A DNA stretch of 64,000 nt from Escherichia coli (GTDB taxonomy: Bacteria; Pseudomonadota; Gammaproteobacteria; Enterobacterales; Enterobacteriaceae). The position numbers and the translations under genes are program-made. Shown here piece by piece: positions 3-18,300 of the stretch (its first letter is position 1; the number at the start of each line of letters is the position of its first letter). A model generated the notes under the pieces. That model saw nothing but the letters and a program-made list of their open reading frames with translations. It was not told the DNA's origin and made no database searches. The stretch lies in assembly GCF_013315695.1 (NCBI RefSeq), contig NZ_CP054356.1; one strand, 5' to 3'.

Positions 3-389
3 TATATTGATGATGAAGATTACCGCCGGCGCATTCTGACCCAGCTTAATCGGGGAGAAAGTCGCCATGCCGTTGCCAGAGCCATCTGTCACGGTCAAAA
101 AGGTGAGATAAGAAAACGATATACCGACGGTCAGGAAGATCAACTGGGCACACTGGGGCTGGTCACTAACGCCGTCGTGTTATGGAACACTATTTATATG
201 CAGGCAGCCCTGGATCATCTCCGGGCGCAGGGTGAAACACTGAATGATGAAGATATCGCACGCCTCTCCCCGCTTTGCCACGGACATATCAATATGCTCG
301 GCCATTATTCCTTCACGCTGGCAGAACTGGTGACCAAAGGACATCTGAGACCATTAAAAGAGGCGTCAGAGGCAGAAAACGTTGCTTAA
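3..389 (+). CDS. tnpA: Tn3-family transposase TnpA, C-terminal fragment (5' part lies outside window)
   Basis: Open frame from window edge to stop at 387-389; C-terminal peptide (..LWNTIYMQAALDHLRAQGETLNDEDIARL..) matches recalled Tn3 TnpA C-terminus; followed directly by the Tn3 terminal IR. Confidence 0.8.
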   Translation, partial: YIDDEDYRRRILTQLNRGESRHAVARAICHGQKGEIRKRYTDGQEDQLGTLGLVTNAVVLWNTIYMQAALDHLRAQGETLNDEDIARLSPLCHGHINMLGHYSFTLAELVTKGHLRPLKEASEAENVA

Positions 390-422
390 CGTGAGTTTTC
401 GTTCCACTGAGCGTCAGACCCC
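385..422. mobile_element. Tn3-type 38-bp terminal inverted repeat (tnpA-proximal end of transposon)
   Basis: CTTAACGTGAGTTTTCGTTCCACTGAGCGTCAGACCCC is the reverse complement of the canonical Tn3 IR GGGGTCTGACGCTCAGTGGAACGAAAACTCACGTTAAG. Confidence 0.85.
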
Positions 423-956
423 GTTTTCATTCTAATGGTGTAGTAGTTTCACGTCACGCGCACGTGCATATTCTTCGAAAGCTTCGGCGTTAGCCGGTCA
501 ACCAGGGGTTTGAGGCCCAACCGTACGAGATCGTACGCTAAGTTCATTTTTTGAGCAGAAGAGGTGAGTAAAGAAAACGAGGGTTTTATTTACTCTTCCC
601 GTCAATGCCAGTAGCCATGCGGTTTCAGGGACTTTCAGTGTTAATAAACTCGGTAATCAAATCAACGTAAACCTGCCTAACAACGCCACGACTTTATTGA
701 CTTAAAATCATATAGTTAGCTTCTTAGCGTACGTTTCCGCTCCATTGGGCTTCAAACCCCACACCCAATGACATGAGAAAAGCTGGATCTGATTCTCAAA
801 ATGCTGGGATACCCATCGAGATGGAGAACTCAGTCAATGTTCCATTCTTTCTGAAATATGTGTGGGGACACTGATCTGTCGGGAGCCGGATGCGGTAGTT
901 CCGCAGGTCCGGTTCTGAGGAGGGGCCCGTCCGGGCAACCGGCGGGTCTACTCACC

Positions 957-1520
957 TCATCCCCCTACAACCACTCCCATTCGTTTAAGTATTTTTAAAC
1001 CTGCTTCCTGTGGTATCTTTATAGATAAGATCCTGTTTATCTCAGGATTTATATCGAGACCTTCTGTCATTGAAAAATCACAGTGAGACAAATCAGAATG
1101 TCTGAACTCTGTATTATTAAACTCCGAACCAGTAAAATCAGATTTACGAAGGTCTGTTTCCTCAAATAAACAATCACGGAAGCGACAGGATAAAAAAATA
1201 GATTTCTGTAACCGTAAACTAATAAAATCAACAAATCTCAAATCACAATTTACAAGAGAAAAAGTACAGGGAAACATAATGTCTGCTGCATTTACTCCTT
1301 GTAATAAACAATCTTTGAATTCACAGTCAATAAGTTTAAAAAAATTAAGTTTTAAATTCTTTATTGAGCAGTTTACGAAGCGACATTTTTCGAACTCACA
1401 ATCGCGAAAGTTAAAGTTGTCAAGCTGTATTCGTTCAAATATACAATTGTAATAATTTACACCTGATAATTCACTTTCACTGAGGTGTCGTTTTGTGATT
1501 CTTTTTTCTATTATATCCAT
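957..1520 (-). CDS. mcbG: Microcin B17 immunity protein McbG (pentapeptide-repeat protein)
   Basis: 187 aa, runs of pentapeptide repeats (..CEFEKCRFVNCSIKNLKLNFFKLIDCEFKDC..); last gene of mcbABCDEFG order. Confidence 0.9.
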   Translation of the reverse strand: MDIIEKRITKRHLSESELSGVNYYNCIFERIQLDNFNFRDCEFEKCRFVNCSIKNLKLNFFKLIDCEFKDCLLQGVNAADIMFPCTFSLVNCDLRFVDFISLRLQKSIFLSCRFRDCLFEETDLRKSDFTGSEFNNTEFRHSDLSHCDFSMTEGLDINPEINRILSIKIPQEAGLKILKRMGVVVGG

Positions 1521-1523
1521 GTG

Positions 1524-2255
1524 TCAGTCTCCTGTTCCCATAACTTCTTTAATAAATGCCTTTTCTGGAGTTGTTTCATTATTGGATTGAATAAAATCAC
1601 TCATATCAGAATAACGATTTATACTATTTTTTGAAAGCATATAGAAGGGGATTTTATCTCTTGTTAATTCATCAAAAATATGAGTTGAGAAAAATACCGT
1701 TTTCCCGTCAGCGGTGATCTTATTTATCAGTTCCCATAACATCATTCTGTACTGAATATCAATGCCTACAGTTGGTTCATCCAGTAAAAATAAACGGGCA
1801 TTTTTGCAAAGCGTTAGCATCAAAGATATGATAAGCCAACGCTTCTCTCCATAACTTACCGTGTAAGTCCTTTTACGTCTTATTTTATCATAGCGAATGA
1901 AAAAATTATCATTCCATTTATGATTAAGCTCTGTCCATGCCTGTTTTTTAGTTAACTTATTGAAGCAGCAAATCAAATCAAGAACCTCCTCATTCCTTAG
2001 TGTACCTGAAAGATTTATGACTTGAGGTAGACTTACTAATTCTCCACCAGAGAAATTTCGCTTGAGGGTCCCTTCATAATTACTGACTCCGCCCCTGATA
2101 AGGTTAAAAAGAGTGGTCTTCCCGGCTCCATTTTCTCCAAGCAGACCTATCAACTCTCCCTGCTCAATCTTAAGCGACAGATTATTGAAAACAGGGGGTA
2201 AATTTACTTTATATGAAAAGCTCAGAGAGTTGATTTCTAAAAGAGGTATGGTCAT
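1524..2255 (-). CDS. mcbF: Microcin B17 export/immunity ABC transporter ATP-binding protein McbF
   Basis: Walker A GENGAGKTT, ABC signature-like SGGE, Walker B LFLLDEP; position in operon. Confidence 0.9.
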   Translation of the reverse strand: MTIPLLEINSLSFSYKVNLPPVFNNLSLKIEQGELIGLLGENGAGKTTLFNLIRGGVSNYEGTLKRNFSGGELVSLPQVINLSGTLRNEEVLDLICCFNKLTKKQAWTELNHKWNDNFFIRYDKIRRKRTYTVSYGEKRWLIISLMLTLCKNARLFLLDEPTVGIDIQYRMMLWELINKITADGKTVFFSTHIFDELTRDKIPFYMLSKNSINRYSDMSDFIQSNNETTPEKAFIKEVMGTGD

Positions 2256-2977
2256 TGAGAACTCCAGACTGGCTCAGTTTTGAAGGTTAGTGCTGAAATA
2301 ATACTTATGATTAACATTATACTATAGAAAAATATCGTCATCAGAGACAACTCCTGGTCTGACTGGAGTATTGTAGAATAGATGGCGATAGGATTAACCT
2401 GATTTATCCAGTAAACGATCCCCTCATTATATTTTAATGATACAATTCCTGATACCATACAGACAGTTATTAATACAGAATAGATAGTGCTGGCTGTTTG
2501 GAATGTGACTCTGAACGATGCCATGAAAGTGAGTGAAACCATCATAAATGCATTTATGTATATCGATTTTAAAATAATCATTACTATTTGATAATCTGGA
2601 CTTGCCTGGAATCCTGTTAGTACGACTAAAATGAAAAAAAACACATACAAAATAGACATGATAAGTGAGGCTATTAATTGAGAACGAATAAATAATAGTC
2701 GACCATCCATATTATGCACGAAGGTAGCAATAAAACCACTTTCTCTTCTTCCGACCAGATACAGACAGTAATTAAACAGAACAACAGAAAAAGAAATGTA
2801 GCCTACAAACCATGATATTTGTTTTCCGAGCCATGCTGTATCACCATAATGAAGTTCAATTTCATTGAAATGAAGGAAAAAGAACAACACTGTAGGTGAC
2901 ATAATTGTCCATATTAAGCTGAAAGGGGTTCTGATTTGTTCCATCAGAAAAATTATCGCCATTTTTAATGTAACCAT
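2252..2977 (-). CDS. mcbE: Microcin B17 export/immunity ABC transporter permease McbE
   Basis: 241 aa highly hydrophobic multi-TM protein, translationally coupled to mcbF. Confidence 0.85.
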   Translation of the reverse strand: MVTLKMAIIFLMEQIRTPFSLIWTIMSPTVLFFFLHFNEIELHYGDTAWLGKQISWFVGYISFSVVLFNYCLYLVGRRESGFIATFVHNMDGRLLFIRSQLIASLIMSILYVFFFILVVLTGFQASPDYQIVMIILKSIYINAFMMVSLTFMASFRVTFQTASTIYSVLITVCMVSGIVSLKYNEGIVYWINQVNPIAIYSTILQSDQELSLMTIFFYSIMLIISIISALTFKTEPVWSSQ

Positions 2978-2986
2978 TTGTTATCC

Positions 2987-4177
2987 TTATGGGAATGGTA
3001 CCATCTTTGATTCTCTGACTTTAATACCGTCCCCGGTATGGTAAATTTTATTATTAATGTTTATTGCACCTGAGTTATTCATATGAAGGAAAAAATCAGG
3101 GCTTACTATTTTTGTGTACCAGACAAGGCTGTTACTTACTCTTTCCCTGGCATAGTAAACAAAAATATTATCAGAAATTTGTTGAAGATAGTTTAATAAA
3201 TTTGTGTCTGACGTAATATTTTCCTCAAGCGTTAACTTGACATCATCAGACAGTAGTACCGTATTTTCACACAAATCCGTAAACGACTCGTACTTGTTGC
3301 ATGACATAAAGTGACGCTGGTAACTATCAATAATGTCATCATCAGTATAACCGCCAATAAGAAAGTTGTGCAGGCATATATACGATTGCCACAATTCCAC
3401 TACGGATTTACAAAGTGCTTTTTTCAGACTATTAGCATAGGATAATCCGGTACTGTATTTTATTCGACTGATTTTGTTTTTTGTGCCATACAGGGTTAGT
3501 ACTGCGTGTCCAGGAGCTCCGGGCAGGGTGATATCGAAAATCCTGATATCTCCTTCTGACCTGAGAGCCAGTAAAATCTCATCTATATGATTTATGCCTG
3601 TTACTATTTCACTGGATATTTCAGTATTGGCTTTTCCCTGTAACCAGTAAAGAAGGAGGGACTGTCTCTCCATAAATTCACACAAGGAACCTTCTATGGC
3701 ATCGTTCAAACTACCATGAAAGCTACATCCGCATGTATCTCTGTCAGGATAAAATTTCAGATCATCTGCAGCGGTTATATTGTCGAGTGCAATTATGACT
3801 GCAGGTATTTCTTGTTGTTCAAGGCTAAACAGATTAAAGGCTCTGACCGTTTTAAATTTATGGGTTATGATTTCATCGCGGGTCAGTGATGAGATCTGAA
3901 AAAATGCTTCGGTAAAAGCCTTTGCAGCAGATGGAGGCATCATCTCATATAATGTTTTCTGACCACCGGTGACTATCTCATTAAAAAAATGACGGCGTTC
4001 AAAATATTCACCTATTGCCCCCTGAATTGACTTCAGAGTTTCACCGGCCGCGCTGGCTGGTGTAATACGCTCATAGTCCCATATCTGAGAAAACGTTGGC
4101 ATATTTCTGTTCAGTTTTGGACTCATGGCCATTGTGGCCGGCCATGCGGACATAAGGTTACTGTAGACATTTATCAT
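2987..4177 (-). CDS. mcbD: Microcin B17 synthetase subunit McbD (YcaO-type cyclodehydratase)
   Basis: 396 aa, operon position between mcbC and mcbE; size matches McbD. Confidence 0.85.
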   Translation of the reverse strand: MINVYSNLMSAWPATMAMSPKLNRNMPTFSQIWDYERITPASAAGETLKSIQGAIGEYFERRHFFNEIVTGGQKTLYEMMPPSAAKAFTEAFFQISSLTRDEIITHKFKTVRAFNLFSLEQQEIPAVIIALDNITAADDLKFYPDRDTCGCSFHGSLNDAIEGSLCEFMERQSLLLYWLQGKANTEISSEIVTGINHIDEILLALRSEGDIRIFDITLPGAPGHAVLTLYGTKNKISRIKYSTGLSYANSLKKALCKSVVELWQSYICLHNFLIGGYTDDDIIDSYQRHFMSCNKYESFTDLCENTVLLSDDVKLTLEENITSDTNLLNYLQQISDNIFVYYARERVSNSLVWYTKIVSPDFFLHMNNSGAININNKIYHTGDGIKVRESKMVPFP

Positions 4178-8809: not shown

Positions 8810-8975
8810 CTCCTTATGGTGTTTTTTTTGGTGTTTGTTTGGGTGTGTTTTGGGTTTTAAGTGGGTTTATTTGTCAAGTTTACCCCATTTTAACTATCAA
8901 TCAATGATTATTTGTCTTGTTTTGGTGTTTTATTGGGTTTGGAGTGGGTTGTTTTTGGGTTTTGTTTGGCGGATA
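8810..8975. promoter_or_regulatory. parC: parC centromere/promoter region (iterated ~11-bp repeats)
   Basis: Directly upstream of parM: multiple direct repeats of GGGTGTGTTTT / GGGTTTTAAGT / GGTGTTTTATT type flanking an AT-rich core. Confidence 0.7.
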
Positions 8976-8980
8976 ACAAA

Positions 8981-9290
8981 AGATGTCGCCGGGCTCCTCT
9001 TTTTACTGCGCCGGCTGACGCGGCGCGGCAGGAACGCTGCCTGTGGTCAGTGTCCCGCGTCCGGCCGGGCACGGGACGGGCGCTTTTACCGCTCCCGGCT
9101 GGCGTCGGTGACAGTGTACGCCAGCCCGTCGCCCTTTTCTGATGAGCGCCCTTCAAGCCGCTTTCGCGGCATAGCCTTGCCGTCAAAAAGACGACGGCTG
9201 CGGTATTCCACGGTCGGCCTGACCCGTTACCGGGCGCGGTGAACAGCCCACAGGCAGCGGGGAACGGGCGCCACAGGGGCGCCCTCCCGA
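8981..9290 (+). repeat. Leading-region structured repeat, family A copy 1 (Frpo/ssi-like candidate ssDNA promoter)
   Basis: About 310 bp nearly identical to 10288-10598; GC-rich with nested inverted repeats; sits directly upstream of an operon start. Confidence 0.6.
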
Positions 9291-9312
9291 TGCTCCTGTG
9301 AGGATAATTCCC

Positions 9313-10239
9313 ATGCCAAACTGGTGCTCGAATCGTATGTATTTTTCTGGTGAACCGGCACAGATCGCTGAGATTAAACGACTGGCCAGCGGTGCAGTCA
9401 CACCGTTTTATCGCCGCGCCACAAATGAAGGTATTCAGCTGTTTCTGGCCGGAAGTGCCGGACTTCTGCAGACCACTGAAGATGTGCGGTTTGAACCATG
9501 CCCCGGACTGACGGCTGCCGGACGTGGTGTTTTATCGCCGGAGAATATCACGTTCACCCGCTGGCTGAAGCACCTGCAGGACGGTGTACTGCTGGATGAG
9601 CAAAACTGCCTGATGCTGCATGAACTCTGGCTGCAGAGCGGTACTGGACAGCGTCGCTGGGAAGGGTTACCGGATGATGTCAGGGAAACTATCACTGTGC
9701 ATTTCACCGCAAAAAGAGGTGACTGGTGTGACATCTGGGGTAACGAGGATGTATCGGTGTGGTGGAACCGTCTGTGTGACAACGTACTGCCGGAAAAAAC
9801 CATGCCGTTTGACCTGCTGACGGTTTTGCCGACCCGCCTGGATATTGAAGTGAATGGCTTTAACGGCGGTGTTCTGAACGGTGTTCCTTCTGCATATCAC
9901 TGGTATACAGAACGGTATGGCGTGAAGTGGCCTTGTGGGTATGACCTGAATATCAGCAGTCAGGGGGAAAACTTCATTCAGGTAGATTTCGACACGCCGT
10001 GGTGTCAGCCGGAAAGCGACGTTGTTGCAGAATTAAGCCGCCGTTTCGGCTGCACGCTGGAGCACTGGTACGCCGAACAGGGCTGCAATTTCTGTGGCTG
10101 GCAGTTGTATGAGCGCGGAGAGCTTGTTGATGTGCTGTGGGGGGAACTGGAATGGTCTTCCCCGACAGATGACGATGAGCTGCCGGAAGTCACCGGACCT
10201 GCGTGGATAGTCGACAATGTGGCGCATTATGGCGGATGA
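9313..10239 (+). CDS. Hypothetical Trp/Cys-rich leading-region protein (about 308 aa)
   Basis: ORF with SD AGGA upstream of ATG 9313 (track gives alternative GTG 9298); motifs PNWCSNRMYF, WCDIWGNEDVSVWWNRLCDN, GCNFCGWQL; no family recognised with confidence. Confidence 0.6.
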   Translation: MPNWCSNRMYFSGEPAQIAEIKRLASGAVTPFYRRATNEGIQLFLAGSAGLLQTTEDVRFEPCPGLTAAGRGVLSPENITFTRWLKHLQDGVLLDEQNCLMLHELWLQSGTGQRRWEGLPDDVRETITVHFTAKRGDWCDIWGNEDVSVWWNRLCDNVLPEKTMPFDLLTVLPTRLDIEVNGFNGGVLNGVPSAYHWYTERYGVKWPCGYDLNISSQGENFIQVDFDTPWCQPESDVVAELSRRFGCTLEHWYAEQGCNFCGWQLYERGELVDVLWGELEWSSPTDDDELPEVTGPAWIVDNVAHYGG

Positions 10240-10287
10240 AGTATGACGGAGACGGGCGGGCAACCGCCCGTTTCTTTTCCGGTAAAG

Positions 10288-10598
10288 GATGTCGCCGTGC
10301 TCCTCTTTTTACTGCGCCGGCTGACGCGGCGCGGCATAAACGCTGCCTGTGGTCAGTGTCCCGCGTCCGGTGGGCACGGGACGGGCGCTTTTACCGCTCC
10401 CGGCTGGCGTCGGTGACAGTGTACGCCAGCCTGTCGCCCTTTTCTGATGAACGCCCTTCAAGCCGCTTTCGCGGCATAGCCTTGCCGTCAGAAAGACGAC
10501 GGCTGCGGTATTCCACGGTCGGCCTGACCCGTTACCGGACGCGGTGAACAGCCCACAGGCAGCGGGGAACGGGCACCACAGGGGTGCCCTCCCGGTGC
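10288..10598 (+). repeat. Leading-region structured repeat, family A copy 2 (Frpo/ssi-like)
   Basis: Near-identical to 8981-9290; ends just before RBS of methyltransferase gene. Confidence 0.6.
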
Positions 10599-10622
10599 CC
10601 TCTGTAAGAGAAGGAGTTTTGT

Positions 10623-11306
10623 ATGTCCCGTTTTGTCCTCGGTAACTGCATCGATGTTATGGCCCGTATTCCTGATAACGCCATTGATTTCATACTGACT
10701 GACCCGCCGTACCTCGTCGGTTTCCGTGACCGTTCCGGGCGCACCATTGCCGGTGATGTTAATGATGACTGGCTGCAACCTGCCAGCAATGAGATGTACC
10801 GCGTACTCAAAAAAGACGCGCTGATGGTCAGCTTCTACGGCTGGAACCGTGTCGATCGCTTTATGGCCGCCTGGAAACGCGCCGGATTCAGCGTGGCAGG
10901 GCACCTCGTGTTCACCAAAAACTACACATCCAAATCTGCGTATGTCGCGTACCGTCACGAATGCGCTTACATCCTGGCAAAGGGCAGTCCGGCCCGGCCC
11001 CGTAACCCTCTGCCGGATGTGCTGGGCTGGAAATATTCAGGCAATCGTCATCACCCGACGGAAAAGCCCGTTACCAGCCTGCAACCACTGATTGAGAGCT
11101 TCACACATCCGAACGCGATTGTGCTGGACCCGTTTGCAGGCAGCGGCTCAACCTGCGTCGCTGCCCTCCAGTCCGGACGCCGGTATATCGGTATCGAGCT
11201 GCTTGAACAGTATCACCGTGCCGGACAGCAACGACTGGCCGCCGTGCAACGGGCCATGCAGCAGGGGGCCGCGAATGATAACTGGTTTGAACCGGAGGCT
11301 GCGTAA
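10623..11306 (+). CDS. Orphan DNA methyltransferase (N6-adenine/N4-cytosine type, beta-class)
   Basis: Motif IV TDPPY precedes motif I DPFAGSGST; 227 aa; typical leading-region orphan MTase. Confidence 0.85.
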   Translation: MSRFVLGNCIDVMARIPDNAIDFILTDPPYLVGFRDRSGRTIAGDVNDDWLQPASNEMYRVLKKDALMVSFYGWNRVDRFMAAWKRAGFSVAGHLVFTKNYTSKSAYVAYRHECAYILAKGSPARPRNPLPDVLGWKYSGNRHHPTEKPVTSLQPLIESFTHPNAIVLDPFAGSGSTCVAALQSGRRYIGIELLEQYHRAGQQRLAAVQRAMQQGAANDNWFEPEAA

Positions 11307-11528
11307 ATGAACTATGCCGGACACGAAAAACTTCGCGCCGACGTGGCGGAGGTGGCCAACACCATGTGTGACCTTCGGGCCAGGCTGAACGATATGGAGC
11401 ATCGCTGTCGCTTTGATTCCGATGTGCTTGTTGAACGCCTGACACGCCAGACGCTGTATCGCGCCAATCGCCTGTTCATGGAGGCGTATACCGAAATTCT
11501 GGAACTGGATTCCTGCTTCAAAGATTGA
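11307..11528 (+). CDS. Hypothetical small protein (73 aa)
   Basis: ATG overlaps methyltransferase stop (TAAATG); operon context only. Confidence 0.5.
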   Translation: MNYAGHEKLRADVAEVANTMCDLRARLNDMEHRCRFDSDVLVERLTRQTLYRANRLFMEAYTEILELDSCFKD

Positions 11529-11541
11529 GAAGGAGACGAGA

Positions 11542-11976
11542 ATGTACGGAACATGCGAAACGCTATGCCGGGAGCTGGCAGCAAAGTATTCGGGAGACAC
11601 GCCACTGATGCTGGTTATCTGGTCCCCGGAAGAAATTCAGGCCCTCTCTGACGGAATGGATATTGCCCTGACCGATCATGAAATCAGGACTGTCCTGGCG
11701 CGCCTGGAGGACATCCCGGAAGACCAGCGGACTGAATCCGGTATTTCTTCCGGCGTGGCGATGGAGATCATCAATAACGTGAGCGAAAACCGCCAGGTGA
11801 CTGTCCCTGCTGAACTGCTGGCGTCCCTGATTCAGACCGCTGAACAGGCATTGTGGAAACGTGAATGGGCCGCCCGGGATCATGGCCTCGCCGTCCCGGA
11901 ATGCGTCACCCGCCGTCAGGCGGTGGTTAATCAGGTCCGCATCCTGCTGAAAAACAACACACACGAAAACGACTGA
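11542..11976 (+). CDS. Hypothetical leading-region protein, paralog of 13679-14098 (possibly DUF1380-type)
   Basis: Good RBS GAGAAGGAG; shares MY(G/C)T start and R-x-VTVPA-x-LL motif with ORF 13679. Confidence 0.6.
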   Translation: MYGTCETLCRELAAKYSGDTPLMLVIWSPEEIQALSDGMDIALTDHEIRTVLARLEDIPEDQRTESGISSGVAMEIINNVSENRQVTVPAELLASLIQTAEQALWKREWAARDHGLAVPECVTRRQAVVNQVRILLKNNTHEND

Positions 11977-12020
11977 TGTTATCGCCGCCTCCGGGCGGCG
12001 ATACAGGGAGTTCATGAATT

Positions 12021-12791
12021 ATGAATGAAATGCTGAATGCACTGATTTATCGCCACGCCAGCAACCTGTTGCTGGCGCAGGGCTGGCCGGAAGAGACGGA
12101 TGTTGACCAGCGTAACCCGAAGTATCCGGGCTGGATCAGCATTTACGTGCGGCTGGATGCGCCCCGGCTGGCGACGTTACTTATCAAGCGTCACGGCGGC
12201 GTACTGCCGCCGCTCCTGGCCTCTGCCATTCAGAAACTGACCGGAACCGGAGCGGAACTTGTTCTGTCCGGCAGTCAGTGGCAGTCGCTGCCGGTACTTC
12301 CGGCAGACGGAACGCAGGTGTCTTTCCCGTATGCCGGTGAGTGGCTGGCAGAGGACGAAATCAGGGCCGTTCTTGGTGCGGTACGCGATGCAGTATGCAG
12401 TGTCAGTTACCAGGTGGCAGAAGATGCGCGGCGTATCCGTGCGGCGCTGACCACCACCGGTCAGACGTTGCTGACCCGCCAGACGCGCCGCTTTCGCCTG
12501 GTGGTGAAGGAAAGCGATCACCCCTGCTGGCTCGATGAAGACGACGAAAACCTGCCCGTGGTGCTCGATGCCATCCTGAACCGGGGCGCTCGTTTTTCGT
12601 CGGTGGAAATGTATCTGGTCAGTGAGTGTGTGGAGCATATCCTGTCCAGTGGGCTGGCCTGCGATATGCTGCGTATACCGGATGAACCGCCCCGCCGCTG
12701 GTTTGACCGTGGTGTTCTGCGGGAGGTGGTCCGGGAAGCCCGGAACGAAATCCGCAGCATGGCGGATGCCCTGGCAAAAATCCGGAAATGA
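12021..12791 (+). CDS. Hypothetical protein (256 aa)
   Basis: RBS AGGGAG 10 nt upstream; codon usage consistent with neighbours; no family recognised. Confidence 0.55.
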
Positions 12792-12847
12792 TGACGCTGG
12801 CGGGGAAAAATCTCCGCCTTTTCCAGTCGGTCCCCGGAAAGAGCAAA

Positions 12848-13200
12848 AGGATGTCGCCGCAGGCTCCTCTTTACCCGGCCATGTGGGGCATGGCCTTGTG
12901 GGTTTTCAGTTATGTGGCCTCAGCGTCGTGTGCGGGCTGTGCCGTGCCTCCATCGTAGCCGGGCTTCTGCGGGCGGGTTGCAAGGTAAGGTGAACCGCTG
13001 CGGTCACCCGGTCCCTCCTTCCCGTCTGCCGTGATTTTCCGGTCGTTCACCCGCTCAGATTTCGCGGTCTCACCCTTCAACTCCCGTCAGCCGTGCGCGT
13101 CAGGCTGCGGCTTCCCTTGCGCCCTTGCAACCCTGCAGGCCCGGCAAAGATGGAGGCACGGCACCGCCCGGTGTCGCGGAATATGTGAACAACGGAGGAA
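12848..13200 (+). repeat. Divergent family-A-related structured element upstream of klcA
   Basis: Begins with the same AAGGATGTCGCCG..GCTCCTCTTT motif as family A copies, then diverges; GC-rich with inverted repeats. Confidence 0.45.
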
Positions 13201-13206
13201 AACATC

Positions 13207-13632
13207 ATGCAATATGCGAAACCTGTCACTCTGAACGTTGAAGAGTGTGACCGTCTCTCCTTTCTGCCTTACCTGTTTGGCAACGATTTTCTGTATGCCG
13301 AGGCGTATGTGTACGCGCTGGCGCAAAAAATGATGCCGGAATATCAGGGAGGCTTCTGGCATTTCATCCGCCTGCCGGACGGTGGCGGTTACATGATGCC
13401 GGATGGCGACCGTTTTCATCTGGTCAACGGTGAAAACTGGTTTGACCGCACTGTGAGTGCTGATGCCGCAGGTATCATCCTGACTTCCCTTGTGATTAAC
13501 CGCCAGTTGTGGCTGTACCACGACAGCGGGGATGCGGGACTGACACACCTTTACCGGATGCGCGATGCGCAGTTGTGGAGCCACATCGAATTTCACCCCG
13601 AATGCAATGCGATTTACGCGGCACTTGACTGA
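13207..13632 (+). CDS. klcA: Antirestriction protein KlcA/ArdB family
   Basis: 141 aa; size, leading-region position and motifs ([21 protein letters not shown]) consistent with recalled KlcA/ArdB. Confidence 0.65.
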
Positions 13633-13678
13633 TTAACGGACGGGGCGGCGATGCCGCCCCTGTAAAGGAGACGAGAAC

Positions 13679-14098
13679 ATGTACTGTACTGTTAAAGAAA
13701 TTATCCGCGAAGTGCTGGATACAGACGTGCCGGACAGTGAATGCGTTTTTGCCGTGGTGCTGACCCGTGGGGATGTGCGTCACATAGCCCAGGACTGGAG
13801 TCTGACAGACGATGAGCTGGAAACCGTCATGCAGCGGCTGGACGATGCCTTTGAGCATGGTGCTGATGTCAGCATTGTTCACGACGTTGTTCGTGAACTG
13901 ATGGAGGAAAAGCGCGTAAACCGTCTTGTAACAGTCCCTGCGGTGCTGCTGGAAAAAGTGATGGTGATGGCTGGTAGTGAAATTTATCGCCTCCATGCTG
14001 TAGGGAGCGAGAACGGGGGCGACGGTGACGCATTTGTCAGGGAAGAACGTGAGATTATGCGGGTGATGCGTCAGGCGCTGGACGGGGAGAATGGGTAA
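13679..14098 (+). CDS. Hypothetical leading-region protein, paralog of 11542-11976
   Basis: RBS AAAGGAGA; shared motifs with ORF 11542 (VTVPAVLLEKV). Confidence 0.6.
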   Translation: MYCTVKEIIREVLDTDVPDSECVFAVVLTRGDVRHIAQDWSLTDDELETVMQRLDDAFEHGADVSIVHDVVRELMEEKRVNRLVTVPAVLLEKVMVMAGSEIYRLHAVGSENGGDGDAFVREEREIMRVMRQALDGENG

Positions 14099-14289
14099 TG
14101 AATATCAGCAAGGAAACCCGCGAAATTCTGCGTAATTACAGGGCCGTGATTAATGCGCGGCGTCGTGAAATGGGGCAGAAACCGCTCACCACCGCGCAGA
14201 TTGTTGATGAAATATGTGATTTTGTGGTGAATCAGCAGGCTGTTTTCCTCGGTGGTCACTACATCCTTCAGGGCAGCAGGCACAGGTGA
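14098..14289 (+). CDS. Hypothetical small protein (63 aa)
   Basis: ATG overlaps previous stop (TAATG); operon context. Confidence 0.45.
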   Translation: MNISKETREILRNYRAVINARRREMGQKPLTTAQIVDEICDFVVNQQAVFLGGHYILQGSRHR

Positions 14290-14490
14290 TACAGGGCAGG
14301 CGGTGGAGGCCGCCTGTCAGCCCGCGCGAAAACCCCTGGCAGGCTGGCGCCTGCCGGAAGGGAAGCGGGCCACGCTGGCGCGTCGCCCGTTACCCTTCCC
14401 GTTTGTGATGTGTCCGGAATGTTTTTTCCTGATGTTATGTTTCTGTGGTTACTGTTCTTCTTCTTCCTCTTCTTTCCGTTCCTCTCCTGT

Positions 14491-15025
14491 TTATGCCTTT
14501 TCCGGGCGTCCCCCTGGCGGGGCGGGCTGTCGTGAACGGAGCCAGCGGAGCTGTCTCCGCCCTGGCGGGCTTCCATCCCTGACGCAAAACCCCGGGTTTG
14601 CAGCGACCGGAACGGTCGCGCCACCCCTGTCGCGCCGTGGCCTGCGCTCCCGGCATCCCGGCAAAAAGACGCCGGGATGTAAGGAGCAACGCCGTTTCGC
14701 AAACCGCGCTTCACGTCGTTGCAGCGGGTCCCTGCTCATTGCCTGCCGGGTGCCACACACCCGTATGAGTCCCTGTCGCCGGGGGCATAGACAGCCACAA
14801 CCTGCCGCACTGACTGTCCAGGGTAAATGAACAGCCCACAAAATTTTTTACCTAAAACCCGGTAAAAAATTTTGCGTTCTGCCCAGGACAGGTGCGTCAG
14901 GCCGTGGCAGTGATGCCCCTTGCGGCGAAGGTTCTCAAACGGGTGAAGTTCATACCACAGGGAATACAGCAGCAGGTTCCCGCGAAACGTCAAAACCGCG
15001 GCTCCCGAAACTCAACGGGTGATGT
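14491..15025 (+). repeat. Leading-region structured repeat, family B copy 1 (Frpo/ssi-like candidate ssDNA promoter)
   Basis: About 530 bp repeated at 17774-18300 and 23191-23740; contains perfect 14-bp inverted repeat CAAAATTTTTTACC/GGTAAAAAATTTTG (about 14839-14874). Confidence 0.6.
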
Positions 15026-17687: not shown

Positions 17688-17722
17688 TCCTGCTACTGCT
17701 ACTGCTACTGCTACTGCTACTG
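17688..17722. repeat. Tandem hexanucleotide repeat (TGCTAC)n, about 5 units
   Basis: CTGCTACTGCTACTGCTACTGCTACTGCTACTG in pyrimidine-rich tract preceding family B copy 2. Confidence 0.8.
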
Positions 17723-17773
17723 TTCTTCTTTTTTCTGCTGCTCTGATTACTGTCTGTTTTGTTGTTCTCCTGC

Positions 17774-18300
17774 TTATGCCTTTTCCGGGCGTCCCCCTGG
17801 CGGGGCGGGCTGTCGTGAACGGAGCCAGCGGAGCTGTCTCCGCCCTGGCGGGCTTCCATCCCTGACGCAAAAACCCGGGTTTGCAGCGACCGGAACGGTC
17901 GCGCCACCCTTGTCGCGCCGTGGCCTGCGCTCCCGGCATCCCGGCAAAAGACGCCGGGATGTAAGGAGCAACGCTGTTTCGCAAACCGCGCTTCACGTCG
18001 TTGCGGCGGGTCCCTGCCCGTTGTTCTGTCCGGTGCCATTCACCTGTTTAAGCCCCTGTCGCCGGGGGCTGATACAGCCACAACCTGCCGCACTGACTGT
18101 CCAGGGTAAATGAACAGCCCACAAAATTTTTTACCCAAAACCCGGTAAAAAATTTTGCGTTCTGCCCAGGACAGGTGCGTCAGGCCGTGGCAGTGATGCC
18201 CCATGCGGCGAAGGTTCTCAAACAGGTGATGGTGAATACCGGAGGGAACAAAAGGCAGGTCCCCGCAAAACGTCAAAACCGCGGCTCCCGAAACTCAACA
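17774..18300 (+). repeat. Leading-region structured repeat, family B copy 2 (Frpo/ssi-like), upstream of ssb
   Basis: Near-identical to 14491-15025 and 23191-23740. Confidence 0.6.

Follow-up and report, generated by a model that had tools for sequence, protein, structure and literature searches.

Two diverged DUF1380 paralogs and a YchA family protein in an IncF/IncI1 plasmid leading region: possible effectors of plasmid establishment

The window, a stretch of 64,000 nucleotides of Escherichia coli DNA, contains a canonical IncF/IncI1 leading region in which two open reading frames on the + strand, at positions 11542–11976 and 13679–14098, encode true but distant relatives, diverged members of the DUF1380 family. 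The identity and the genomic context of these two genes are near certain. With regard to function, we favor, at somewhat less than even chances, the reading that the DUF1380 proteins and the YchA protein encoded between them are independent, acidic and fast-evolving effectors that serve plasmid establishment or counter host defense.

The preliminary description had taken the two frames for paralogs on the strength of a common N-terminus and a common motif. Both features are present (MYGT and RQVTVPAELL in paralog 1, MYCT and RLVTVPAVLL in paralog 2), and pairwise alignment bears out the relationship, with 32 of 116 positions identical (28%), 50% positives and an E-value of 1e-9 in a single BLASTP comparison. 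Paralog 1 (YubF/YcgB type, 144 aa, pI 4.7) matches the Pfam model for DUF1380 (PF07128) from end to end (E 9.8e-52, model positions 1–137 of 137). Paralog 2 (YubJ/YcjA/YcgC type, 139 aa, pI 4.5) matches it only weakly, at an E-value of 4.3e-4 and over model positions 1–106, because the model was built around the paralog-1 type; its membership is also backed by a clean alignment with the four subtypes of the family. Both proteins match phrog_9024 (E 5.7e-71 for paralog 1 and 3.9e-5 for paralog 2), and RefSeq assigns both genes of the window to the DUF1380 family. The paralogy itself is already known, being recorded in Pfam and RefSeq. The same genes are known as YubF and YubJ of the F plasmid (also YcgB and YcjA/YcgC) and as Hp10 and Hp12 of pESBL. 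The F orthologs occupy the same positions and are 92% (paralog 1) and 87% (paralog 2) identical, and Samuel et al. (2024) divide the two types found in the window between their leading-region families 7 and 14.

The hallmarks of DUF1380 are an N-terminus of the form MY(G/C/A)(T/P) and a linker, R-x-V-x-VP-A-x-x-L, that precedes a C-terminal helical hairpin. In an alignment of 20 sequences, residues M1, L12, P89, L93 and R107 are invariant, and Y2, T4, V86, V88 and A90 are conserved in at least 90% of the members; the protein of the IncL/M plasmid pOXA-48 departs from both motifs (MHGN..., RKIEVNAEAL). The AF2 model of paralog 1 is all-alpha (pLDDT 84), and its gene is preceded by the Shine-Dalgarno sequence AAGGAG, 7 nt upstream of the start codon. 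The isoelectric points of all subtypes fall between 4.3 and 4.9, in line with the effector reading, although acidity is an unspecific trait. A 13-nt segment that is identical upstream of both paralogs, AAGGAGACGAGAA, was considered as a shared RNA element and rejected because it occurs in the IncF lineage only, the Shine-Dalgarno contexts of other lineages being different. A tblastn search of the phage collection with paralog 1 gave no match. All three proteins, both DUF1380 paralogs and YchA, nevertheless have PHROG families, which probably derive from plasmid-like records. An hhalign comparison of the DUF1380 N-terminal domain with a 156-aa protein encoded upstream of distant YchA genes returned a probability of 56% and an E-value of 1e-4, which we treat as a lead only.

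The genes are organized in two operons. The first follows a hairpin-forming intergenic region (10240–10622) and consists of genes for a beta-class N6/N4 DNA methyltransferase of the M.EcoGIX/YubD type (10623–11306), YubE (73 aa, 11307–11528), paralog 1 and the 256-aa YchA/YubG/NgrC family protein (12021–12791). The second follows an intergenic region of 415 nt (12792–13206) and consists of the KlcA/ArdB-type anti-restriction gene klcA (13207–13632), paralog 2 and orf63 (14098–14289), which encodes a basic protein of 63 aa with a pI of 10. All leading-region genes lie on the + strand and point towards traM/oriT, as they do in F, which makes the transferred (−) strand the template for their transcription. 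F and the IncI1 plasmid pESBL (PMC4288162) share this gene order exactly, and the closest plasmids among the matches listed are conjugative IncFIA plasmids, 99.8% identical, in agreement with the earlier placement of these genes in an IncF leading region adjoining anti-restriction functions. The same arrangement was found by tblastn and megablast in at least 5000 PLSDB plasmids, all near-identical records. About 60% of complete E. coli genomes (3156 of 5426) have it as well.

The assignments of the neighboring genes made in the preliminary description were upheld for the most part. In the methyltransferase, DPPY (residue 27) precedes FAGSG (residue 171), which is the motif order of the beta class; RefSeq lists the protein as a DNA methylase and its homologs carry PF01555. 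In pESBL, M.EcoGIX guards the plasmid against restriction (PMC4288162). The start codon of yubE abuts the stop codon of the methyltransferase gene, and YubE, which matches phrog_4830 (E 9.8e-37) and whose homologs carry PF27407 (YubE), is found in every methyltransferase-containing locus of the census of 33 loci described below. KlcA matches PF03230 (Antirestrict, E 2.4e-26) and is named an antirestriction protein in RefSeq. The start of orf63 overlaps the stop of paralog 2 (TAATG), and this gene closes the anti-restriction operon of nearly all related loci, whether the anti-restriction protein that precedes it is KlcA or ArdA. Paralog 2 does follow klcA, as had been described, but yubE lies between the methyltransferase gene and paralog 1. 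Nor can paralog 1 be said to flank klcA: the ychA gene and the 415-nt intergenic region separate the two, which hence belong to different operons.

The 256-aa protein had been described as having no recognizable motif. This is correct insofar as it has no match in Pfam, NCBIfam, PADLOC or the PDB sequences, but it does belong to a family: it matches phrog_8919 over residues 4–256 (E 3.4e-134), and YchA entries of AFDB match its model at a TM score of 0.97. It corresponds to Hp11 of pESBL and to family 10 of Samuel et al. (2024). YchA/YubG is a small family of Enterobacterales plasmids without a Pfam domain, whose homologs were found down to 23% identity, and for its confidently predicted fold (pLDDT 91) no solved structural relative was found. 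The F ortholog is 92% identical and is encoded at the corresponding place, just before the anti-restriction operon; in the related loci, the next gene downstream of ychA always encodes KlcA or ArdA. Some YchA proteins bear labels in the databases, for example 'membrane protein', 'DUF1472' and 'ArdA', that stem from fusions or mis-annotation.

Both operons have upstream of them a stable hairpin in the transferred strand, which templates the genes. Folded as single-stranded DNA, region 10240–10622 gave z-scores of −6.8 (+ strand) and −6.7 (− strand), and region 12792–13206 gave −4.6 on both strands; in either case none of 100 shuffled sequences folded as well. By sequence reading, the latter region comprises a terminator-like hairpin at about 12799–12822 and a long hairpin after it. 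No sigma-70-type double-strand promoter was found across 10200–14900. In pESBL, a class 2 single-stranded DNA (ssDNA) promoter that is conserved in F is located upstream of klcA, and RNA-seq and 5' RACE in the pESBL/F systems show that the M.EcoGIX and KlcA operons are induced from these upstream regions, the ssDNA promoters firing in the recipient within minutes of entry and falling silent once the plasmid is double-stranded (PMC12672017). By analogy, the long hairpin of 12792–13206 is probably the class 2 ssDNA promoter of the klcA operon, and 10240–10622, judging from its position and folding, is probably a class 3 ssDNA promoter active on the transferred (−) strand.

The shared operons speak for a co-factor role of the DUF1380 proteins, as raised in the preliminary description: each would assist the anti-restriction protein encoded before it as a co-factor, regulator or specificity subunit, paralog 1 the methyltransferase and paralog 2 KlcA. 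The spacing within the operons is tight, with the stop-start overlap of paralog 2 and orf63 as one instance, and in the IncF, IncI1 and IncL/M backbones alike a DUF1380 gene lies at most two genes from klcA. We examined the association by HMM scoring of 33 loci, a small and phylogenetically clustered sample, partly ascertained through DUF1380 itself, in which the diverse loci came from contigs encoding distant YchA homologs, from one genome-contig scan and from a profile of two DUF1380 sequences. Strict co-occurrence with either the methyltransferase or KlcA, as expected of an obligate co-factor, fails across these loci and pOXA-48. The number of DUF1380 genes per locus varies from 0 to 4, with 0–2 after the methyltransferase and YubE genes and 0–2 after KlcA. 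One locus (L007) has genes for the methyltransferase, YubE and YchA and lacks DUF1380, KlcA stands without a downstream DUF1380 gene in several others (L008, L013, L019, L024/25, L028), two loci (L029 and L030) have two DUF1380 genes in one slot, and pOXA-48 has a single DUF1380 gene and neither methyltransferase nor YchA. In the sampled loci a DUF1380 gene in the downstream slot always follows KlcA, never ArdA, a contrast that comes down to about two independent ArdA lineages.

In-frame DUF1380::YchA fusions of 375 aa (P0043, P0063 and P0100), which occur naturally, might likewise speak for functional coupling in these operons. As Rosetta-stone evidence they were down-weighted because the region has also given rise to other deletion and frameshift fusions (YchA::KlcA and KlcA::DUF1380 singletons among them) and to an internal duplication, and because a predicted YchA helix is partly lost at the junction. 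KlcA/ArdB and M.EcoGIX, when cloned, are active by themselves. A DUF1380 protein is thus unlikely to be a co-factor of the neighboring gene product, and the division of labor outlined above, with one dedicated subunit for each neighbor, appears to us decidedly improbable. Instead, the census reveals four diverged DUF1380 subtypes, with 20–30% identity between them, that replace one another or stand side by side in two slots, the methyltransferase operon housing subtypes c1 and c4 and the KlcA operon subtypes c2 and c3. The suggestion that the paralogs are specificity variants would fit this pattern.

To judge from substitution patterns, DUF1380 and YchA are real proteins that evolve faster than their neighbors. 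The dN/dS ratios are 0.21–0.45 for paralog 1, 0.19–0.31 for paralog 2 and 0.21–0.26 for YchA, as compared with 0.05–0.08 for KlcA and 0.10–0.14 for the methyltransferase, and amino-acid identity drops to 55% for DUF1380 and to 38–59% for YchA where that of the methyltransferase is 84%. Selection is purifying overall, without signs of an arms race, and the faster rate of DUF1380 and YchA could reflect weaker constraint. These data also bear on the idea that the frames have no function, being passengers or decaying remnants that persist solely through linkage to useful neighbors. Deleted, fused and frameshifted copies are frequent in the databases, one close pair has a dN/dS of 0.97, though at a dS of 0.03, and in the TnSeq study of pESBL the DUF1380 and YchA genes were neutral for plasmid maintenance and for transfer into laboratory K-12 (PMC4288162), which is the lack of phenotype expected of passengers. 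Purifying selection is nevertheless consistent (dN/dS 0.2–0.45, at dS up to about 1), the frames are intact in all four subtypes despite their divergence, the AF2 models are confident and the Shine-Dalgarno sequences are strong, so that there is very little chance that these are passengers. Such TnSeq neutrality would also be shown by condition-specific accessory effectors.

According to the reading that we prefer, DUF1380 and YchA would be small, acidic proteins of the cytoplasm that are produced in the new host and act there as stand-alone effectors; most likely, they would bind and neutralize a host protein, such as a component of a defense or stress-response system, and thereby aid plasmid establishment. 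They would probably not be obligate partners of the adjacent methyltransferase or KlcA, and the four swapping and stacking DUF1380 subtypes might represent alternative specificities. In the survey of Samuel et al. (2024), these families are among the most prevalent uncharacterized leading-region families with T-strand orientation, many of which the authors argue to be anti-defense (PMC11541004). With ArdA, KlcA/ArdB, PsiB and the anti-CRISPRs, DUF1380 and YchA share the genomic niche, the transferred-strand orientation and, probably, expression from ssDNA promoters; they are likewise small and acidic and are distributed as modular accessories. The resemblance is one of context only: no sequence or fold similarity between DUF1380 or YchA and known anti-defense proteins was detected, and searches of PADLOC, NCBIfam and PDB sequences came back empty. 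Likewise, the supplementary table of Samuel et al. has essentially no anti-CRISPR or anti-restriction matches for these families (PMC11541004), and in the literature on DUF1380, ychA/ycjA and yubF/yubG/yubJ we found no functional study and no defense-relief experiment.

Leading-region proteins can have roles other than defense, which counts against the effector reading. HerB (YfjB), a ParB-like leading-region protein that is zygotically induced, reprograms host transcription (PMC13370423). DUF1380 and YchA might similarly target the plasmid's own entry programme, or host physiology, instead of defense systems, for example, by tuning ssDNA promoters, by influencing SSB or RecA loading or complementary-strand synthesis, or by host reprogramming in the manner of HerB/YfjB. 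We regard such a role as unlikely. HerB has ParB/CTPase and HTH domains that DUF1380 and YchA lack, no DNA- or nucleotide-binding motif or fold was detected in either family, and the proteins are acidic. Moreover, the variable copy number and the loss of these genes from otherwise intact leading regions speak against a core role in entry, and the genes were neutral in the TnSeq screen of pESBL.

The genes described here are found on the plasmids to which E. coli, Salmonella and Klebsiella owe most of their antibiotic resistance, they are probably expressed very early in a new host, ahead of most other genes, and the three families to which they belong are among the 15 commonest leading-region families of the 2024 survey (PMC11541004). 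To this, the present analysis adds that the co-factor hypothesis is unlikely, that DUF1380 genes behave as swappable accessory modules (0–4 copies, four subtypes, two slots), and that the position of YchA, a protein without a solved structural relative, is tightly tied to the anti-restriction operon; these points should help in the choice of knock-outs and interaction screens. It is possible, although we put this forward only tentatively, that DUF1380 is an unrecognized family of early plasmid effectors, the four interchangeable subtypes of which each disarm a different host factor of defense or stress response, and that YchA is a second new anti-defense protein. In that case, uncharacterized anti-defense genes that promote the spread of IncF and IncI resistance plasmids would be present in about 60% of sequenced E. 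coli.

The locus is encoded on the + strand throughout and comprises a DUF1281 gene (9298–10239), a beta-class N6/N4 DNA methyltransferase (10623–11306), a 73-aa gene (YubE, 11307–11528), the first of two DUF1380 genes (paralog 1, 11542–11976), a 256-aa ORF (YchA, 12021–12791), klcA (13207–13632; Pfam PF03230, E 2.4e-26), the second DUF1380 gene (paralog 2, 13679–14098) and a 63-aa gene (14098–14289) whose start codon overlaps the stop of paralog 2. Around these genes, IncFIA conjugative E. coli plasmids show 99.8% identity to the window over 8 kb. Gene order is identical in plasmid F, with traM/traJ on the right side, and the IncI1 plasmid pESBL has the same order: M.EcoGIX, Hp9, Hp10, YchA/Hp11, KlcA/ArdB, Hp12 and Hp13 (PMC4288162). 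The closest plasmid, NZ_CP024888 (locus L001), carries a microcin B17-type operon (McbB, SagB/ThcOx dehydrogenase and YcaO-like genes) at 10–3124, just past parM and to the left of its window-matching part.

The preliminary description had taken the ORFs at 11542–11976 and 13679–14098 for paralogs sharing an MY(G/C)T N-terminus and an R-x-VTVPA-x-LL motif. Both features were found in the two proteins alike, and pairwise alignment (28% identity over 116 residues, E 1e-9) bears out the relationship; each protein also matches Pfam DUF1380 (E 9.8e-52 for paralog 1 and 4.3e-4 for paralog 2) and phrog_9024. Judged from these sequence comparisons, the paralogy is real, and it is already on record in RefSeq, where both are named 'DUF1380 family protein'. 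Four DUF1380 subtypes (c1–c4) can be separated, with mutual identities of 19–31%, every one of them acidic (pI 4.3–4.9). The family profile recovers 1099 clusters (90% identity), all from Enterobacterales among the matches listed. Profile searches of PDB sequences with DUF1380 and YchA returned no match, and the predicted folds of both give no function. An acidic 156-aa protein is encoded 5' of distant YchA genes (L003, 3608–4078; L009, 5220–5690; L007, 4260–4571), and hhalign pairs the C-terminal half of this protein with the N-terminal domain of DUF1380 (probability 56%, E 1e-4). It may be a remote relative, and the alignment hints that the N-terminal domain could be a separable module.

In RefSeq, paralog 1 (WP_227910476.1) starts at an ATC codon 84 nt 5' of 11542 (window 11458–11541), overlapping yubE. 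The start at 11542 in the preliminary description is preferable: no ATG, GTG or TTG is present between the upstream stop and this position, and all paralogs start with MY. Because the ATG at 11542 is preceded by a strong Shine-Dalgarno sequence and its Met is position 1 of the Pfam DUF1380 model, the RefSeq start is probably wrong. The plasmid F annotation of paralog 1 is likewise extended at its 5' end.

The 256-aa ORF had been described as lacking any recognisable motif. This holds for Pfam, NCBIfam, PADLOC and PDB sequences, none of which gave a match, but the protein does belong to the YchA/YubG/NgrC family (phrog_8919, E 3.4e-134), a small one: 1.84 billion proteins yield only 177 representative clusters. 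In-frame deletion fusions of paralog 1 to YchA (375 aa; database proteins P0043, P0063 and P0100) occur on at least 25 contigs, with window position about 11935 joined to about 12065 at a common ...NQxRxLL... peptide. Singleton variants include a YchA::KlcA fusion (P0007), a KlcA::DUF1380 fusion (P0152) and a paralog 2 with an internal duplication (P0121).

Gene content was scored with family HMMs in 33 loci, sampled from contigs encoding distant YchA homologs, a one-genome-per-species scan and annotated plasmids. YchA lies directly upstream of an anti-restriction gene, KlcA or ArdA, in every locus, even at 23–31% identity, the sole exception being a contig that ends right there. DUF1380 is facultative in the methyltransferase operon (absent from L003, L005, L007 and L009, single in most loci, two in tandem in L030) and after KlcA (no copy in L005, L008, L013, L019, L024/25 and L028; one in the window, F, L012, L014, L015, L027 and L009; two in L029 and L030). 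None follows ArdA in this sample, in which ArdA loci represent only ~2 lineages. The pSLT-type Salmonella plasmid has a c4 subtype in the methyltransferase operon and a c3-like subtype after KlcA, and IncL/M pOXA-48 has one divergent DUF1380 two genes 5' of klcA, with neither methyltransferase nor YchA. The proposal that the paralogs are co-factors of the genes next to them, improbable in our estimate, is thus countered as an obligate partnership with either neighbour, since presence and copy number vary at both positions; the distribution fits interchangeable accessory modules. In several lineages (L017–L023, L026, L003/L004) ardA occupies the klcA position, with YchA 5' and the 63-aa gene 3' still in place; the anti-restriction gene is thus an exchangeable cassette in a conserved frame. 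Assemblies assigned to Streptomyces morookaense, Oscillospiraceae, Oscillibacter and Collinsella contain enterobacterial plasmid leading-region contigs (L011, L013, L015, L016, L018), almost certainly through contamination or mis-binning.

Among close relatives, dN/dS was 0.21–0.45 for paralog 1, 0.19–0.31 for paralog 2 and 0.21–0.26 for YchA, with 0.05–0.08 for KlcA and 0.10–0.14 for the methyltransferase; a single paralog 1 pair gave 0.97 at negligible dS. Amino-acid identities in Citrobacter/Enterobacter/Raoultella lineages were about 55%, about 44%, 38–59%, 75% and 84%, respectively. By these measures DUF1380 and YchA are real, constrained proteins that evolve faster than their characterised neighbours, and it is very doubtful that they are passengers without function.

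In our reading, the genes form two early operons: MTase-YubE-DUF1380-YchA and KlcA-DUF1380-orf63 (the 63-aa gene). The M.EcoGIX and KlcA operons of pESBL and F are strongly induced in transconjugants, and new single-strand-DNA promoters, whose start sites were located by 5' RACE, have been proposed before the methyltransferase (class 3) and before klcA and ardA (class 2) (2025 study, PMC12672017). In the window, the 383 nt 5' of the methyltransferase and the 415 nt 5' of klcA form long single-strand hairpins (z -6.7 and -4.6 on the transferred (-) strand, 0/100 shuffles as good for each; + strand z-scores similar), and a consensus scan of 10200–14900 for sigma-70-type promoters found 0 (2.0 expected). 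Both regions are candidate single-strand promoters, judged by where they lie, how they fold and the homology of the locus. Immediately 3' of YchA, at about 12799–12822, a short GC hairpin precedes TTTT. GC-rich stem-loops of the form GGGGCGGC-N3-GCCGCCCC lie between cistrons (11981–12002, 13642–13660, about 12799–12822), the one between klcA and paralog 2 being kept in lineages with proteins at just 44% identity; RNA stability or attenuation are possible roles. A ~320-nt hairpin-forming element occurs twice (95–97% identity), 5' of the DUF1281 gene (8978–9293) and of the methyltransferase (10284–10598), and the former gene is probably driven by the same kind of promoter. Another repeat of ~580 nt (14438–15016 and 17721–18299; 90–96% identity), located 5' of the orf76-DUF3560-methyltransferase-2 block and of the ssb region, probably represents Frpo/ssi-type single-strand promoters. 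ORFs of ~100–135 aa wholly within the repeated hairpin elements (10203–10547 and 8835–9242) are probably not genes; one of them is a hypothetical protein in RefSeq, where its annotated homolog WP_001310011.1 corresponds to window positions of about 10236–10547.

Among 5426 complete E. coli genomes, 3300 contain paralog 1 DNA, 3477 contain paralog 2 DNA and 3156 contain at least 80% of the 11542–14098 block, nearly all copies being plasmid-borne. Among leading-region families ranked by size (Samuel et al. 2024, supplementary file 3, PMC11541004), the paralog 1 type (YcgB/YubF; 'Uncharacterized; DUF1380') is family 7 (3957 members), the annotated methyltransferase and KlcA are families 8 (3753) and 9 (3645), and the uncharacterised YchA and paralog 2 type (YcjA/YcgC/YubJ) are families 10 (3556) and 14 (3145). 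For all five the transferred strand is the template, and none had meaningful matches to anti-CRISPR/anti-restriction sets (PMC11541004). The observation is correct, yet the locus is a canonical stretch of the IncF/IncI leading region that had already been annotated and catalogued, and nothing in the window stands out against thousands of other plasmids.

We found no paper on DUF1380 or YchA function; in the pESBL TnSeq table, Hp10, YchA and Hp12 score as neutral, both in maintenance and in transfer to K-12 (PMC4288162). While the identity and context of these genes are secure, we only tentatively favour a role as stand-alone early effectors that would bind a host factor and thereby help the plasmid to establish. 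This preference draws on the context and timing of the genes, on their modular distribution, on the faster evolution and acidity of the proteins, and on the fact that a laboratory recipient poor in defences can do without them. It seems unlikely that they instead serve the entry programme of the plasmid itself or reprogram the host.
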